Shown here piece after piece: positions 49,157-55,494 of a stretch of DNA of 64,000 nt. The notes beneath the pieces were generated by a model. It saw nothing but the letters and a program-made list of their open reading frames with translations, was not told where the DNA came from and did no database searches. The stretch covers positions 773 through 64,772 of the forward strand of contig CAYWRG010000018.1 of the NCBI GenBank assembly GCA_964460715.1, in the 5' to 3' direction. Each line of letters starts with the position of its first letter. The first letter of the stretch is position 1. The translations under genes were made by a program, and so were the position numbers. This stretch comes from an uncultured Opitutus sp. GTDB lineage: Bacteria > Verrucomicrobiota > Verrucomicrobiia > Opitutales > Opitutaceae.

Positions 49157-49819
49157 ATGCGGGTCGCGGTGATTGAAGATCAGGCTCTGGTGCGCGAGTA
49201 TCTTGCGATGCTGGTGCGCAAGCATCTGGGCGTGCAGGATGTCCTCGCGATTGGATCGATGGCTGAGCTTCGACAGCGAGAGGAAGAGTTTGTAGGCGTT
49301 AATCTGATCATATTCGACATTGATCTCGGTGATGGGAGCACGATCGATTGGGCGGTCGAACGCGCACAAAAATCCGGGAGTGGGGTTATGGTTGCACTCA
49401 GCTCGATCTCGGGTGCTTTCCCCTTCAAAAAACTCCAGACGTCAGGGATCAGTCTTGTTCACAAGAACGACTGTGAGGCGGAGTTTGTCGATGTTCTCCG
49501 TCAAGCCTTGGGCGGGGCCGTTGTGTTATCGCGGCGTGTGATGGATTTAATTTCCGCGGCGGGGCGTGATCCGCTTTCGCCCATCAAGTTGCTCGGGGCC
49601 AAGGAGCAGCAGGTTCTTGGTCTGTTGGGTCAGCGCCTGAGTAACGAGGAAATATCCGAGCTGTTGGGTTGTGCCCCGAGCACGGTTGCGGATCATCGCA
49701 AGCGAATCATGCGCAAGCTTGATCTTCATCGGATCGAGGAGGTTATCGACTACGCGATCCGGCACGGAATGGTGCATGATTCCGTCGCGGCGGGGGCCCG
49801 CTCGGGAATCAAGCGGTGA
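49157..49819 (+). CDS. Response regulator, LuxR/NarL family (REC + HTH_LuxR)
   Basis: REC domain (MRVAVIEDQ...IIFDIDLGDG). C-terminal LuxR HTH (KEQQVLGLLGQRLSNEEISELLGCAPSTVADHRKRIMRKL). Confidence 0.85.
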   Translation: MRVAVIEDQALVREYLAMLVRKHLGVQDVLAIGSMAELRQREEEFVGVNLIIFDIDLGDGSTIDWAVERAQKSGSGVMVALSSISGAFPFKKLQTSGISLVHKNDCEAEFVDVLRQALGGAVVLSRRVMDLISAAGRDPLSPIKLLGAKEQQVLGLLGQRLSNEEISELLGCAPSTVADHRKRIMRKLDLHRIEEVIDYAIRHGMVHDSVAAGARSGIKR

Positions 49820-52800
49820 GTCGCTGACGGGTTTGCGCAATCTCCTCTGCCGCAAAAGGCAGGAGCTTGTCGACGGTTGACCAGTCGGCAGATTCAGCTG
49901 CGCTCTCGAGGAGAGCAATTTGTTCGGCGGCACCCTCCTCAGAGGCGAGCAGCAGGAGGGAGCGAAGAGCATGCGCTTCGCGTGGTGTCCGCGGATCTCG
50001 AAGTTCCGCCAAAGTGGTTGTGCTTTGCCAGCGCGCGGCGATATCGCTCGCGAGTTGCTCGCATGACGGCGCGAGATCCCCCAGGGATGCAAGTGGCGAG
50101 GCAGGCGCAGCCGCGAGATTGATGTCCAGCGAGCGGCGCGGTTGCAGCCCCTCGGAAAGGCCGCGGATTACTCGAGAGAGTTTTTCCTTGGTGATCGGCT
50201 TTGTGACAAAGCCAGTCATGCCGGCTGCTCGGGCCTCGTCTAGTTTCTCGGTGGTCGAATACGCGGTGACAGCGATCACCGGTGGCTTGGGATTCGGCAG
50301 CAAGGAGAGGATTCGCTTGCAGAGGTCGCCGCCGTTCATGTCAGGCAGCCGCCAGTCGGTCAGCACCAAGTCATACTGGCGTTCGCTGGCGAGTTTGAGG
50401 GCGGAGGTTCCGTCGGCCGCCCAGTCGACCTGGTAGCCCAAGGCGCGAAGGACGTGGCCCAGGGCGATGCGATTGTAGTCCTCGTCCTCGATGGCCAGCG
50501 CACGCGAAACCATCGCAGGAAGCTCGACCGCCTTTTCCGGTGGGCGGGCGTTTGGCAGCAGAACTTCGATCGCGAATTCGGTAACGCCATCGATGCTTGC
50601 CGCGGTGATGCGCCCACCCATGGATTGAATCAACCGGCGGCACACGGCAAGTCCCAGACCGGACCCCGGCATGCCGGCGGTTCGGGACCCACGTTGAAAT
50701 GATTCGAAGAGGCGCGGAATCTCGTCGACTGGGATGGTTGGACCGGAATTTCTTACGGCAATCCGGATTCGCGACCGTCCGCCGCCGGCATTTTCCACCC
50801 GGACTTCGATGCCGGCCTCACGGGGAACGCCATATTTTAGGGCGTTGGAGATCAGGTTGCAGGCGATCTGGCGGAGCTTTCCCGAGTCGCCGTGTAACCA
50901 TACTGCCTCATCGGGCAGAATCAGGGTGCATGCGCTCCTCTCAGGATCCATGACCATGGCGGATTCCTCAATGAGGGCCACGAGCTCGAAGTCCTGATTG
51001 GTGACGGCGACATCGCCTCGCTCGATTCGCGAAAAATCGAGAATGTCATCGAGCATAGAACGCAGCTGGTCGGCGCATCCGCCTAGTGTGCGAACCAGCA
51101 TCTTTTCCCTGGGTCCAACCTCGCGATCGGCAAGCATCGCGCAGATCCCGACAACTCCGTTGAGCGGATTGCGAATTTCGTGACTGATGCCGGCTAGGAA
51201 TTCCTCCTTCGCGGCGTTGGCCTTGCGAAGTTCGGAGGTTCGCAACGCTACGCGCCGTTCGAGCTCACGATTACGGCGCTCAAGTCGGCGAGTTCGAAGT
51301 CGGGCAAGACCGATGACAAGTCCTGCGGTGAGACCAACATGAAGCGGCCAGGCCCATGGGCGCAGCCACCACGGCCAAGGGCGGATGACGGTGAACTGCC
51401 GTTCGACTATAAGGCCGTTGCGCTCGGCTTGAGTGGATAGCAAGGTTTCGCCCCAGGAAACAGGTATCTTGAATTGGCTGCCTAGCTGGAGTTCTGACCA
51501 AGGACCCATTCCGACCCGCACTCGTAACTGAGTTGAAGGCGATGTCGGAAAGTCGGGCGAGATGGCCGTTACCTGAGCGAACTCTTCCGCGGAGGATCGC
51601 AAGTATATGCGCTTGTCTTCCACTCTTGCTGACCAGTTCAATTCAGGGTTAGGTGTTTGGGATTGCGGAATAGGTAGGCGCACGCGAATTACGCCGCGCG
51701 GGCCGGCTGCGAAGAGGTAATTCTCTGTCGCTGTAATGTGCTCTGCTCCGATTTGGGCAAGGCCTGGGATTTCCAGAGGCTGCCAAGTTCCGCCTTCAAT
51801 GGTTCCAAGTACGGGGTCGCGTCCAGGCCTAGTTGTTAACACAGCGAGTTTTCCCTGAATTAGAGTCGCATCGCGTGGATTCCCGTTCTCGATCTTTCCC
51901 ACTAGATTGACGTCAGAGTCGAGAATGGTGCCGTCCCAAAAAAGTAAAGTAACCTTGCCCGGTCTAACTTCGCGTACAGCTACACGACCGGTACCGATTT
52001 GCGCTTTGAGTTCTCCGGTGGGAGAAAATGTGTACGCGCCTCGAGTATTTGATCCGGCAATGAAGTTTAGGCCGTCACTCGCAAGACTGTTTATTACGCC
52101 ATCTATTGGGGCGGTGTGCGTGACCCCGTTGACTGTCAGTGAGACCATCCCGTGATCTAAAACCACAGCGGCAGCATCTGCCGTTACGGCAAGACCCTTC
52201 ACGAATCGATAAGGCAAGGTAGCTGATGATCCCTTAAACATTAGTATCTTATCGACGACGGAAGCGTCTTTAGTTGCGGGCCATTGTGTCGACTGATCCG
52301 AGATTGCTCGGATGTTGGTATCTTTTATTGTGATCGTTCCCGATCCAGTCATGACCTCTAATTCACCGCGTACGTTTGTTTGGACCTGAAAAATCGCCTC
52401 ATTATTTAACGCTGTGAACTGGGTTGTCCATGGGTCGCCCATCGCGAAAAGGCCATCTGCTGTTCCGATTAGATAGCCGCCATTGTAGGGAATGAAACAG
52501 TATACGTTTCCCTCAGGCCTCCACTCCCATGCCGATTCTTCTGCGCCGGGGCGGTAAGCGTATATGCCTGAAGTGAATGTTGGCACGACGATCCACGGGC
52601 CTGCTGAGGCGAGACCGACAATGCCTGAGTCCAATAGGTGTTGTGCGTCGGGGCCTCGGAAGACAGCGTTTCCGGCATCGGTTAAGATTCCGCGGCTAGT
52701 GGCAAGATAATCTCCGGCTTTCCAGTAAATGCGCAGGTCGCCTAAGGCGGAAAGATTGGGCTTCACTGTCAGGTCGCCGTTTTTCCAGATGCGGGGTGTA

Positions 52801-53321
52801 TCACCTGGGTTGCTAATGACTATGTCAGCGCCGATTTTTGCGACCCGGGTTTGGTTGCCTGATAAAGAAGGTGGCAGCACAGACTTTGATGAGCCATCCG
52901 GTGATATAAGCCATAACCCGTTGCGACCTGCGACCAGCCAACCTTCGTCAACTGGTTCCGAGGAAAGGTATTCGCCCTCCATTCCTGGAATCATGATGAT
53001 GTTTCCGTCACGAACCAATCCGCAGAAACCAGAGCCCGCTACGAGTAGATCCTCATCGCGATGGGATATCGTTTGGACGACTTGTCCGCGTGGCGTCGCT
53101 ACCAGCTCCCACGCGCCGTTTGGCATTCCAAACGCGACTCCTCCCTCGAAGCCTAGCGCAATCTGACCACGCGGTAATTCCTCGATGGTCCAGATGGGCT
53201 TGCTTCGCAAGAACTCTGGCAGGCGAACTTCGCTTACAAGCGGACCTAGGCCCGAGGCGCGTACACCAAAAAACAAGTAAGCAAGCAGAAAAAGCACCCA
53301 AGACTTAGTCATAAACTTCAT
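49809..53321 (-). CDS. Hybrid sensor histidine kinase: large periplasmic propeller-like sensor + HisKA + HATPase + REC + Hpt
   Basis: Track ORF 49809..53348; ATG at 53321 gives MKFMTKSWVLFLLAYLF. About 600-aa periplasmic region, then a TM segment. H-box FLAGISHEIRNPLN, followed by HATPase, REC (DLVLTDWRLPDMNG) and an Hpt-like C-terminus (EAHALRSLL). Converges on the LuxR regulator gene and overlaps it by 11 nt. Confidence 0.85.
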   Translation of the reverse strand: MKFMTKSWVLFLLAYLFFGVRASGLGPLVSEVRLPEFLRSKPIWTIEELPRGQIALGFEGGVAFGMPNGAWELVATPRGQVVQTISHRDEDLLVAGSGFCGLVRDGNIIMIPGMEGEYLSSEPVDEGWLVAGRNGLWLISPDGSSKSVLPPSLSGNQTRVAKIGADIVISNPGDTPRIWKNGDLTVKPNLSALGDLRIYWKAGDYLATSRGILTDAGNAVFRGPDAQHLLDSGIVGLASAGPWIVVPTFTSGIYAYRPGAEESAWEWRPEGNVYCFIPYNGGYLIGTADGLFAMGDPWTTQFTALNNEAIFQVQTNVRGELEVMTGSGTITIKDTNIRAISDQSTQWPATKDASVVDKILMFKGSSATLPYRFVKGLAVTADAAAVVLDHGMVSLTVNGVTHTAPIDGVINSLASDGLNFIAGSNTRGAYTFSPTGELKAQIGTGRVAVREVRPGKVTLLFWDGTILDSDVNLVGKIENGNPRDATLIQGKLAVLTTRPGRDPVLGTIEGGTWQPLEIPGLAQIGAEHITATENYLFAAGPRGVIRVRLPIPQSQTPNPELNWSARVEDKRIYLRSSAEEFAQVTAISPDFPTSPSTQLRVRVGMGPWSELQLGSQFKIPVSWGETLLSTQAERNGLIVERQFTVIRPWPWWLRPWAWPLHVGLTAGLVIGLARLRTRRLERRNRELERRVALRTSELRKANAAKEEFLAGISHEIRNPLNGVVGICAMLADREVGPREKMLVRTLGGCADQLRSMLDDILDFSRIERGDVAVTNQDFELVALIEESAMVMDPERSACTLILPDEAVWLHGDSGKLRQIACNLISNALKYGVPREAGIEVRVENAGGGRSRIRIAVRNSGPTIPVDEIPRLFESFQRGSRTAGMPGSGLGLAVCRRLIQSMGGRITAASIDGVTEFAIEVLLPNARPPEKAVELPAMVSRALAIEDEDYNRIALGHVLRALGYQVDWAADGTSALKLASERQYDLVLTDWRLPDMNGGDLCKRILSLLPNPKPPVIAVTAYSTTEKLDEARAAGMTGFVTKPITKEKLSRVIRGLSEGLQPRRSLDINLAAAPASPLASLGDLAPSCEQLASDIAARWQSTTTLAELRDPRTPREAHALRSLLLLASEEGAAEQIALLESAAESADWSTVDKLLPFAAEEIAQTRQRLTA

Positions 53322-53381
53322 CCGGAATGGGGTAGATAATCGGCTCACATGAAACGATGGGCAACGAGATATTCGTGGAGT

Positions 53382-53573
53382 ATGAAAAAGATGCTTTCCT
53401 TTTGCTCGTTTATTGCCGGATCGGCGGCCGCTGCCCTTTTGGCTTTAGGTTTCAGTGATGCAGCCGGCAAACTTGATCCAGTTTCCCAAAAGACGGTTAA
53501 TGCGTCATCTATGCAAACCGGCGAGGCTTCTGCACTACCATGCATCGACGCTGATCTTCGGTCATCGATGTAA
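53382..53573 (+). CDS. Small ORF with signal-peptide-like N-terminus (63 aa; start uncertain among 53349/53382/53391)
   Basis: MKKMLSFCSFIAGSAAAALLALGFSDAAGKLDPVSQKTVNASSMQTGEASALPCIDADLRSSM. GGAG at 53377-53380 is well spaced for the ATG at 53391. AT-rich region, so coding status is unproven. Confidence 0.3.
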   Translation: MKKMLSFCSFIAGSAAAALLALGFSDAAGKLDPVSQKTVNASSMQTGEASALPCIDADLRSSM

Positions 53574-53595: not shown

Positions 53596-54477
53596 ATGCT
53601 CTCACTCGCCTCCATCCGCTACCGTGACGTTTTCGCCGATGATGGCGGTCCGATTGAGCGCGTGATGACGGGTGATTGTGCAATTTTGGGCCAGAAGCAG
53701 AAGCAGGCTAACGCCTTCCTGCGTCCCGAGCTGTCGGTAGGGAAGCCCTCCCATGCCGTTTATGGTCAGGCAGACGGAACCGGTTCGGCGGAATCGCCCT
53801 CGATTGCCTGTCATATGGCGATTTCCGAGGCGCTGGAACGCTGGGCTTTCTTGGCGACTCATCGCAGCAAGGAAAGTGCGCGCTACGGCTTTGATGTCGA
53901 TCGCAGCTCGAATGGCATGGCGGCGTTCCCTGGCCTCTTCCGTGGTCAGGCGGCGCGCCGGGCCCGGATGGAGGCGCTTGAGCGCTACGCCCTGATTTCC
54001 TGGTGGGATGGCCGTTTTTCGGCCGAACGCGTGGCTTCGCCTTTCCCGGGAGTCGACGTCATTCGCATCCACCACAACGCAGGGCGGGGCGAAGTGGTTA
54101 TCCTCGCCCAGAAATCGCGGGCTGGAGTCGCCTATGGGCATGCTGCCGGTGGCACGCTGACCACGGCGACCTTGAAGGCAGCGGTGGAGCTGGCTCGCGC
54201 AGACTTCGTTATCACCGCACACCGGGCCAAGGGCGCCATTGTTCAGGCGGCCAATTACCTTGAGCGTCGAGCGCTCCATTTTTCCACCGAAGCCGGGCAT
54301 GACCAGTTTCTCGCCCGGTTGCATTCGCGGCCCAACAAGGCCGCGCCCTCGTGGCGGCCCGTCTTTGATGGGGAAATCGCAGGTCCTTGGTCACGATGGA
54401 CGACTGTCTGGCGCTGCGCGGTCGCCATGCCGACCAATGACTTTCTCGAGCCAAACGCGGACTTCTTCTTCTGGTAA
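53596..54477 (+). CDS. Short YcaO-like protein (putative ATP-dependent peptide backbone-modifying enzyme)
   Basis: 293 aa. GTGSAESPSIACHMAISEALERW (E78/E81) and SSNGMAAFPG...RMEALERYALISWW (E126/E129) resemble the two ExxE(R) ATP/Mg motifs of YcaO-superfamily proteins. Assignment is by motif recall only, with no search run. Confidence 0.55.
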   Translation: MLSLASIRYRDVFADDGGPIERVMTGDCAILGQKQKQANAFLRPELSVGKPSHAVYGQADGTGSAESPSIACHMAISEALERWAFLATHRSKESARYGFDVDRSSNGMAAFPGLFRGQAARRARMEALERYALISWWDGRFSAERVASPFPGVDVIRIHHNAGRGEVVILAQKSRAGVAYGHAAGGTLTTATLKAAVELARADFVITAHRAKGAIVQAANYLERRALHFSTEAGHDQFLARLHSRPNKAAPSWRPVFDGEIAGPWSRWTTVWRCAVAMPTNDFLEPNADFFFW

Positions 54478-54481
54478 AATT

Positions 54482-54709
54482 ATGGATACCCGAATCACCA
54501 CGCTTCTCGAGATCCGCGACCAATTTTATCACGACGGTCTTTCAGCGGCCGTTCGGCATGCCCGAGCTGCATTTGAGGCGGGCCAGATTGATGCCATGGA
54601 TGTCCCTGAGATTTTCATGGCACTCAAGAGTGGATCTTGGCGATTCCTCGATCACCTTGGCGCACGATCCGGTTCCTCTGGCGGTATGCTTTCGACGCCA
54701 ACCGGATGA
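54482..54709 (+). CDS. Small protein (75 aa), unknown function; Gly/Ser/Thr-rich C-terminus
   Basis: ATG 4 nt after the YcaO-like stop. Its stop overlaps the kinase start (ATGA at 54706-54709). MDTRITTLLEIRDQFYHDGLSAAVRHARAAFEAGQIDAMDVPEIFMALKSGSWRFLDHLGARSGSSGGMLSTPTG. Confidence 0.5.
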   Translation: MDTRITTLLEIRDQFYHDGLSAAVRHARAAFEAGQIDAMDVPEIFMALKSGSWRFLDHLGARSGSSGGMLSTPTG

Positions 54710-55494
54710 GCGAGGGTTTTACCAAAACCGAAGCCGCTCTGCTTGAAGCCTTGGAGCGTGAACGCGCTCTCCTGAAGCAGCGCGACTTGGTCAATGGTAT
54801 CGTTCTCCACGAGATGTCCAATGCCGTGGCTGTCGTGATGGGCGCGGTCGAGCTGATCAAACTCAATGGGACTCGCTCTCCCACCTTCCATTTTGCGCTC
54901 CAGCGGGTCGGCGGTGGTGCGCGGTTGATGAATGAAATGCTTTCAGGGCTCCGCGTCCTTCTGGGCGGTGAAGGCAATGACCCTGTTTACGAGCGCCGTG
55001 ATCTTCCGGCTTTTGTGAAGAGCATCGCCACAGATCCGGTTCTGACGGCGGAGAACGCCTCTACGCGAGTCGAAGTTCTCACACGGCTGACGGATCCAAC
55101 TCGAGTGTTTTGTCCCGCTCTCGTACGGCATGCGATTGCCAACCTCGTTCGCAATGCCCTTCGCTACAGCCCGCCGCCAAGGCCCGTCACCGTGATCGTT
55201 GGTGGACGGGCTGATCGTTGCTGGATTCACGTCCTCAACCGGGGCCCGAAAATTTCTCCAGAGATTGCGACGCGTCTTTTCGAGCCCGGGAAGAAGAACC
55301 CCAAAGGGGGCATGGGTTTTGGCCTGCACATCACCCAAGCCTGCGCCTTGCGGATGGGCGGCGAACTCGTCTTTGGCACGAGCCCAAGCGCGACAGTGTT
55401 TTCCCTAAGACTGGGAAACCGGCCGGATTCGATTGGCCGTAAGCTCGGCCGCGCGGCTGTACCTGGCTTCGGGCCCGTCGCAAGCAACGCTTAA
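54706..55494 (+). CDS. Soluble histidine kinase (HisKA + HATPase only; no TM or sensor domain)
   Basis: H-box IVLHEMSNAVAVV, N-box AIANLVRNALRYS, G2 box GGMGFGLHI. 262 aa from the ATG at 54706. Confidence 0.8.
   Translation: MSEGFTKTEAALLEALERERALLKQRDLVNGIVLHEMSNAVAVVMGAVELIKLNGTRSPTFHFALQRVGGGARLMNEMLSGLRVLLGGEGNDPVYERRDLPAFVKSIATDPVLTAENASTRVEVLTRLTDPTRVFCPALVRHAIANLVRNALRYSPPPRPVTVIVGGRADRCWIHVLNRGPKISPEIATRLFEPGKKNPKGGMGFGLHITQACALRMGGELVFGTSPSATVFSLRLGNRPDSIGRKLGRAAVPGFGPVASNA

Follow-up and report, generated by a model that had tools for sequence, protein, structure and literature searches.

A helical small protein co-inherited with a sensor-less histidine kinase at mini-YcaO loci of Opitutaceae, and its candidate role as a kinase partner

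Precursor peptides of the NHLP and Nif11 type have a long structured leader, a GG cleavage site, and a core rich in Cys, Ser, and Thr. Other YcaO enzymes stand alone and modify proteins, as in the thioglycine of McrA, which depends on the methanogen YcaO, and the thioamide at Met82 of uL16, which depends on E. coli YcaO (PMC13063428). There is also precedent for small helical proteins that attach to a histidine kinase at its DHp domain, an example being Sda with KinA (PMC10730256). The locus described here places a small ORF between a YcaO-like gene and a histidine kinase gene, and the original prediction for this ORF offered two roles: a RiPP precursor modified by the YcaO enzyme, or an adaptor that controls the kinase. 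The window, which is the whole stretch of 64,000 nucleotides that was analyzed, comes from an uncultured Opitutus sp. and carries the following features.

49809..53348, minus strand: hybrid histidine kinase of 1179 aa, with signal/TM and propeller-like sensor, HisKA, HATPase_c, REC, and a C-terminal Hpt-like tail (Pfam)
53349..53573, plus strand: upstream small ORF encoding a Sec-type signal peptide, MKKMLSFCSFIAGSAAAALLALGFSDAA/GKLDP..., and, C-terminally, ...ALPC...; it ends 22 nt before the mini-YcaO gene
53596..54477, plus strand: mini-YcaO of 293 aa with a YcaO fold (Pfam, AF2, Foldseek, and conserved columns)
54482..54709, plus strand: small ORF for a cytoplasmic protein of 75 aa, predicted to form four helices over residues 3-63 before a disordered tail of 12-16 residues (translation, homologues, AF2, and selection)
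54706..55494, plus strand: sensor-less histidine kinase of 262 aa, with a DHp helix carrying the H-box HEMSN and then HATPase_c (Pfam HATPase_c, 2.6e-15)

The small ORF is a real gene and is under selection. It reads from an ATG at 54482 to a TGA at 54707-54709, a 75-codon gene with a 75-aa product. The gap from the YcaO-like stop to its start is 4 nt, and its end overlaps the kinase ATG at 54706 as ATGA, so that coordinates and translation agree with the predicted length, spacing, and coupling. The same frame is also open further upstream in the ORF listing, from a TTG at 54239, but the longer version is not supported, because the N-termini of homologues all match the ATG at 54482, just past the YcaO-like stop. 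The prediction had further made its case depend on conservation of the ORF in syntenic loci, and homologues of 73-80 aa do recur at this position, in 12 genomes and in 14 metagenome contigs. Across loci, the small gene begins 4-20 nt past the YcaO stop, and the overlap between its stop and the kinase start is 4 nt here and in the neighboring genus g84 and 14 nt in the clade of 80-aa forms. Between genomes, the body of the protein (codons 1-58) gives pN of 0.09-0.17 versus pS of 0.50-0.82, or a pN/pS of about 0.13-0.25, and judged from these codon comparisons the helical body is under purifying selection. The small protein evolves much faster than its neighbors: this genome and G004 share 64% identity in it, compared with 91% in mini-YcaO and 89% in the kinase. 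Its gene also has a lower GC3 (0.53) than the genes for mini-YcaO (0.69) and for the kinase (0.64).

A word-based search for close relatives of the small protein yields three only, all of 75 aa. When DNA downstream of YcaO-like genes in related genomes is read directly, ORFs of 74-80 aa align along the helical body, and a profile search leads to 119 clusters of homologues, in 106 of which the protein is exactly 80 aa long. The family thus sampled comprises about 120 sequence clusters with members of 73-80 aa, all from Opitutaceae or related Verrucomicrobia; the loci examined come from one bacterial family and from metagenomes. An exhaustive HMM search of 1.84 billion representatives returned 28 matches. 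Three of these are long repetitive proteins that aligned in many short stretches, and the others measure 73-103 aa. Rosetta-stone fusions were also sought among these 28 matches, and no informative fusion is present. For several members, Pfam, NCBIfam, and PADLOC give nothing above threshold, and the only recurring Pfam-type signal is a sub-threshold match to TPR_14 in 16 of the 119 members.

The AlphaFold2 prediction, made with the 119-sequence alignment, places helices at residues 3-18, 20-32, 38-50, and 55-63 with a mean pLDDT of 81.6, and these four helices within residues 3-63 bear out the helical N-terminal region of about 60 residues that had been expected. In this model (m0a1c5d96cc45), residues 64-72 have a pLDDT below 50 and form a disordered tail. 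Neither a profile search of PDB sequences, which gave no significant match, nor Foldseek against the PDB, where the best E is 5, finds a relative of known structure. The protein has no signal peptide and no TM segment, and A23, R28, D40, E43, A47, and S52 are nearly invariant across the family. The idea that it might be a split-off C-terminal piece of a canonical YcaO (293 + 80 aa) was rejected, as the small protein lacks sequence or fold similarity to YcaO chains; the idea is also contradicted by the 293-aa enzyme, which keeps its own conserved C-terminus and mostly occurs alone. Overall, these small proteins are an undescribed and unannotated helical family of about 120 clusters, mostly of exactly 80 aa, whose members are currently annotated as hypothetical or are not called.

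The protein encoded upstream had been called YcaO-like, and the 293-aa product is a genuine mini-YcaO, with a YcaO fold and both acidic motifs. It just clears the Pfam YcaO model (25.9 bits versus a cut-off of 25.7 bits, over profile positions 113-180 only). Its AlphaFold2 model has a pLDDT of 93.5, and Foldseek matches it best to the M. kandleri YcaO 6cib (E 4e-6, probability 1.00) and also to McbD (6gos) and EcYcaO (4q85). There are more than 1150 homologues, nearly all of 293-294 aa, and the acidic motifs S77-E78-x-x-E81-R82 and E126-x-x-E129-R130 and a C-terminal FFFW are conserved. Identity within the genus of this window is 81-93%. No E1-like or RRE partner is fused to the enzyme or encoded beside it, and the Pfam domains of the neighborhood include no conserved protease, exporter, or dehydrogenase. 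A TfuA partner for thioamidation was also considered and set aside, as the genome has no TfuA. A paralogous mini-YcaO with 39% identity is encoded in the same genome outside the window (contig C3:48266-49129, minus strand), divergent from a 1251-aa hybrid kinase. It is followed by neither a small protein nor a sensor-less kinase, and the 180-nt gap there contains no obvious signal-peptide ORF. At several loci without the small ORF (L029, L032, L033, and L031/L034), the gene after mini-YcaO is often a REC-domain protein, a REC-first hybrid kinase, or a PAS kinase. Since signaling genes lie downstream even where the pair of small protein and kinase is absent, mini-YcaO is tied to two-component signaling in several arrangements.

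The core of the locus is constant and consists of a propeller-type hybrid kinase gene divergent from the genes for an exported Cys-peptide and mini-YcaO. Divergent from the YcaO-like gene, 28 of the 29 loci have a region homologous to the N-terminus of the hybrid kinase, and the orthologue in genome G110 carries Reg_prop (Pfam). In this window a LuxR-type regulator is also encoded, at 49157-49819. By inspection, each of the 29 loci has a signal-peptide ORF immediately before its YcaO gene, while a stricter regular expression recovers it in 22 of the 29, with a Cys in 19 and a P(x)C motif in 17. In this window the ORF at 53349-53573 reads MKKMLSFCSF...ALGFSDAA / GKLDPVSQKTVNASSMQTGEASALPCIDADLRSSM, with cleavage probably after SDAA. 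Across the 29 loci the motif of the upstream ORF is usually (G)(L/M)PC, and a Cys is present in it at each of the 12 loci with the small ORF and the kinase. The upstream ORF is a more plausible candidate for a YcaO substrate than the ORF at 54482-54709. For the mini-YcaO cassettes of Verrucomicrobia generally, the likely substrate would be the exported Cys-peptide encoded upstream rather than the small protein studied here.

The kinase gene that overlaps the small ORF encodes a protein of 262 aa for which Pfam and an alignment of 11 orthologues reveal no TM segment and no PAS or other input domain. The earlier description of this kinase as sensorless is therefore apt, as an H-box and HATPase_c were found but no input domain. 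Its G1 box, VLNRGPKI, has Asn (N178) where Asp is usual, and orthologues in the 80-aa clade have ANGGPGI. The adjacent hybrid kinase likewise has Asn in its G1 box (AVRNSGPTI), and Asn occupies this position in only 5 of the 59 kinase catalytic domains of the genome. The H-box of the sensor-less kinase keeps the phosphatase-type motif H-[ED]-x-x-N. As far as such motifs can tell, the kinase may be phosphatase-biased or may use nucleotide differently.

The small protein is inherited together with this kinase. Of 29 mini-YcaO loci taken from different genomes, 12 contain the small ORF, and these are exactly the 12 with a kinase of the same type (P0003-type) downstream, while none of the 17 loci lacking the kinase has it. 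A further 14 metagenome contigs, found with a profile of the 80-aa form, show the order YcaO-like gene, small ORF, kinase where they are long enough, and the kinase follows the small ORF in 11 of the 11 contigs that extend far enough. Thus, in 26 loci (12 genomes and 14 metagenome contigs), the small ORF always lies between the 293-aa mini-YcaO and the sensor-less kinase where the sequence reaches. The distribution of the enzyme is much wider, with mini-YcaO in 62 of 151 genomes of the same family (32 of 63 genera) and the small protein in 13, so that about 80% of the genomes with mini-YcaO (all but 13 of 62) lack the small protein, and with it the sensor-less kinase. In the 13 genomes that have it, it is present in a single copy, always directly after the YcaO-like gene and nowhere else. 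On a tree of YcaO-like proteins, the distribution of the small protein and kinase calls for at least four gains or losses, and the pair never splits. Even within one genus (g9), both genes are present in two genomes and neither is present in a third. The small protein and the sensor-less kinase are together an optional addition to the mini-YcaO core locus.

The C-terminal tail differs greatly among members of the family. The dominant form, of 80 aa, has a fixed motif as its tail. Its final 17 residues, GLPGAYR[YF]VPKA[DE][HY]AFA, have a mean column identity of 75% versus 64% in the body, R70 is invariant, and G67, Y69, and P73 are at least 96% conserved. Ser, Thr, and Cys are all missing from the last 18 residues in 41 of the 110 members of this form. 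Genus g84 has tails of the form ...RAPGGSRFPFSR[GE], which evolve under strong constraint (dN/dS 0.03-0.13). Within this window's own genus, tails vary (GARSGSSGGMLSTPTG, RGRSTSPGRMLSTSTG, GVQSDSSTGLVRTLAR, and GVRLDGSGASHTKSTG) and are the least conserved part of the protein, with a dN/dS of about 0.67 for the closest pair versus 0.05-0.2 for the body. Other members of 73-76 aa have unrelated tails, many of which end in Ala-Ala, and the 75-aa form conserves no Ser, Thr, or Cys in its tails. Conservation of the tail, which the prediction had singled out as worth checking, is thus a divided result, with relaxed variation in this genus and a fixed motif, often without Cys, Ser, or Thr, in the 80-aa form.

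The prediction had also pointed to a flexible tail rich in Gly, Ser, and Thr, preceded by a GG pair, as part of a layout like that of RiPP precursors. The flexibility is supported by the disorder predicted for residues 64-72, but the composition is variable within the genus, and the GG pair (residues 67-68) is not kept even there, as other members have SPGRM, SSTGL, or GSGAS in its place. Because the tail is variable here and a fixed motif elsewhere, the Gly/Ser/Thr tail of this window might best be read as a degenerate remnant of that motif, and from its sequence it does not look like a Cys/Ser/Thr core. Any role for the tail is one that we infer. Most members end in small hydrophobic residues, with ...AFA in the 80-aa form and ...RAA, VAA, QAA, or PAA in many 75-aa forms. 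Ala-type C-termini of this kind resemble degradation tags such as the ssrA-like ...LAA, while the protein of this window instead ends in ...PTG. At some loci of the 80-aa clade (L020, L021, and L023), G-L-P-G-A-Y in the tail resembles G-L-P-C of the exported peptide encoded upstream, with Gly in place of Cys. Mimicry of the upstream peptide by the tail was considered for this reason and set aside; a comparison of six loci of the 80-aa clade shows no co-variation between these motifs, and the likeness may be a coincidence.

Given these observations, the reading that we tentatively prefer, at a probability of roughly 0.45, is that the small protein acts in the cytoplasm as a partner of the sensor-less kinase or as its input protein. 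This role is the best supported because the gene is strictly co-inherited with, and overlaps the frame of, a kinase that lacks a sensor. The small folded helical protein would work together with the kinase encoded immediately downstream, most likely by binding it and supplying or gating its input, and it may couple the kinase to mini-YcaO or to the peptide pathway of the same operon. We infer the binding, the direction of its effect (activation or inhibition), and any contact with the YcaO enzyme. The adaptor role that was originally proposed, in which the protein would control the kinase, fits the strict co-inheritance and the overlapping frames. Some observations count against a kinase partner, among them the lack of likeness to known kinase regulators described below. 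The gene never occurs without mini-YcaO either, and co-occurrence alone therefore cannot separate a kinase partner from a YcaO partner that is used only with the kinase. Also, conservation in the 80-aa form is higher in the tail than in the body, which would suit a modification site as well. If the kinase-partner reading is true, a new and unannotated family would join the few small proteins that work with histidine kinases, the source of the signal for a kinase without a sensor domain would be explained, and about one-fifth of mini-YcaO loci would carry an extra cytoplasmic signaling layer made of the small protein and the kinase.

The same facts must be weighed for roles that tie the small protein to the enzyme instead. 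It might be a substrate of mini-YcaO, either as a RiPP-like precursor with a helical leader and a C-terminal core, or as a folded protein that is modified in the backbone of its tail, for example by thioamidation as in McrA or E. coli uL16. Its gene directly follows that of a YcaO-fold enzyme with intact acidic motifs of the ATP/Mg type, it is never found away from mini-YcaO, four tail positions of the 80-aa form (G67, Y69, R70, and P73) are nearly invariant, and the best structural match of the enzyme is the protein-modifying M. kandleri YcaO, which is independent of TfuA. A substrate of this kind would nevertheless have no copy anywhere in about 80% of the genomes that encode an orthologous mini-YcaO, and its presence follows the kinase rather than the enzyme. 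Its tail is variable and relaxed in this genus while the enzyme stays 81-93% identical, and the universal upstream ORF, with its signal peptide and Cys, fits a substrate better. Furthermore, the genome has no TfuA, no conserved protease, exporter, or dehydrogenase lies nearby, the GG pair is not kept, and there is no homology to NHLP or Nif11 leaders. Azoline formation cannot be the shared chemistry, since Cys, Ser, and Thr are all lacking in 41 of the 110 tails of 80-aa members. Together with the co-distribution in just 13 of 62 genomes, these findings disfavor the RiPP-precursor role that had first been suggested. A kinase partner is more likely than a peptide modified by mini-YcaO, and we consider a substrate role unlikely. 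It keeps some weight because the small protein is always found with mini-YcaO, because the 80-aa tail is fixed, and because stand-alone YcaOs that recognize and modify folded proteins are documented (PMC13063428).

A related proposal, that the protein is an accessory subunit of mini-YcaO, would have it stand in for the missing RRE or E1-like domain as a recognition factor or scaffold that presents the upstream peptide, with the kinase as a passenger. The absence of a fused or adjoining E1-like/RRE partner, the start of the small gene only 4-20 nt after the YcaO stop, and weak TPR-like signals that hint at a peptide-binding helical repeat are all agreeable to this role, yet most mini-YcaO loci manage the same type of upstream peptide without the small protein, which itself is never seen without the kinase. 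The all-helical AF2 fold is also not the winged helix of a PqqD-like RRE (three helices and a three-stranded sheet), and no RRE is among the Foldseek matches; we view this proposal as quite improbable. A hybrid of these roles has a slimmer chance still. The small protein would be a folded substrate or pseudo-substrate whose tail (GLPGAYR[YF]VP in the majority of the family) is bound or backbone-modified by mini-YcaO, and the coupled kinase would read that state. If this were true, ATP-dependent backbone chemistry on a protein would feed directly, within the cytoplasm, into a two-component pathway with a second role in controlling or sensing the exported Cys-peptide. Finally, a four-helix protein encoded with a kinase, in an operon without a response regulator and with a REC-bearing hybrid kinase as its constant neighbor, might be an Hpt-like phosphotransfer protein or other signaling intermediate that receives phosphate from the sensor-less kinase or passes it to the REC domain of the hybrid kinase. 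However, the 119 sequences have no conserved His, no Hpt match appears in Pfam even at E = 1, and the hybrid kinase already has its own C-terminal Hpt-like segment, which makes this role very improbable indeed.

Comparison with known systems clarifies where the kinase-partner reading stands. The likeness to NHLP/Nif11-type precursors of YcaO (TOMM) pathways lies in a length of about 75-80 aa, a helical N-terminus of about 60 residues, a short tail, and an adjoining YcaO gene, and the operon adjacency of such precursors is found here (a 4-nt gap, and 26 loci). Unlike those precursors, the small protein has no conserved GG, and in its dominant form the tail is frequently free of Cys, Ser, and Thr and better conserved than the supposed leader. 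Five members of the family match neither the NHLP/Nif11 leader models nor other NCBIfam or Pfam models. A conserved modifiable core, a leader family or cleavage motif, and co-distribution with the enzyme (62 versus 13 of 151 genomes) are all lacking. In addition, unlike TOMM clusters, the locus has no E1-like partner, dehydrogenase, peptidase, or exporter, and the small gene is absent from most loci of the enzyme. The protein-modifying, stand-alone YcaOs (PMC13063428) offer another likeness, as they are YcaOs without an RRE partner that act on, or are encoded beside, a folded protein. Their targets McrA and uL16 are essential, universal, and encoded elsewhere, whereas the candidate here is a dispensable protein of 75-80 aa present in about one-fifth of loci. 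Neither the winged helix-turn-helix and three-stranded beta-sheet of a PqqD-like RRE nor the four-helix bundle with an invariant phospho-accepting His that defines Hpt proteins is seen in the family.

The regulators Sda, KipI, and FixT resemble the present case in another way. They bind the DHp/catalytic core of a soluble histidine kinase. The proteins compared are all small (46-80 aa), helical, and cytoplasmic, and the core of the sensor-less kinase could likewise be within direct reach of its candidate partner. The profile search of PDB sequences and Foldseek indicate no similarity in sequence or fold to Sda, KipI, or other known kinase regulators, and no homology to the Sda family. Sda docks on the DHp domain as a helical hairpin, whereas the protein described here is predicted to have four helices and a tail. 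Sda is also encoded apart from kinA and is controlled by DnaA, whereas the small gene is translationally coupled to its kinase. The strict genomic association of the small protein with one kinase would be expected of a small-protein kinase regulator, and the parallel with Sda and KinA would be one of logic rather than ancestry.
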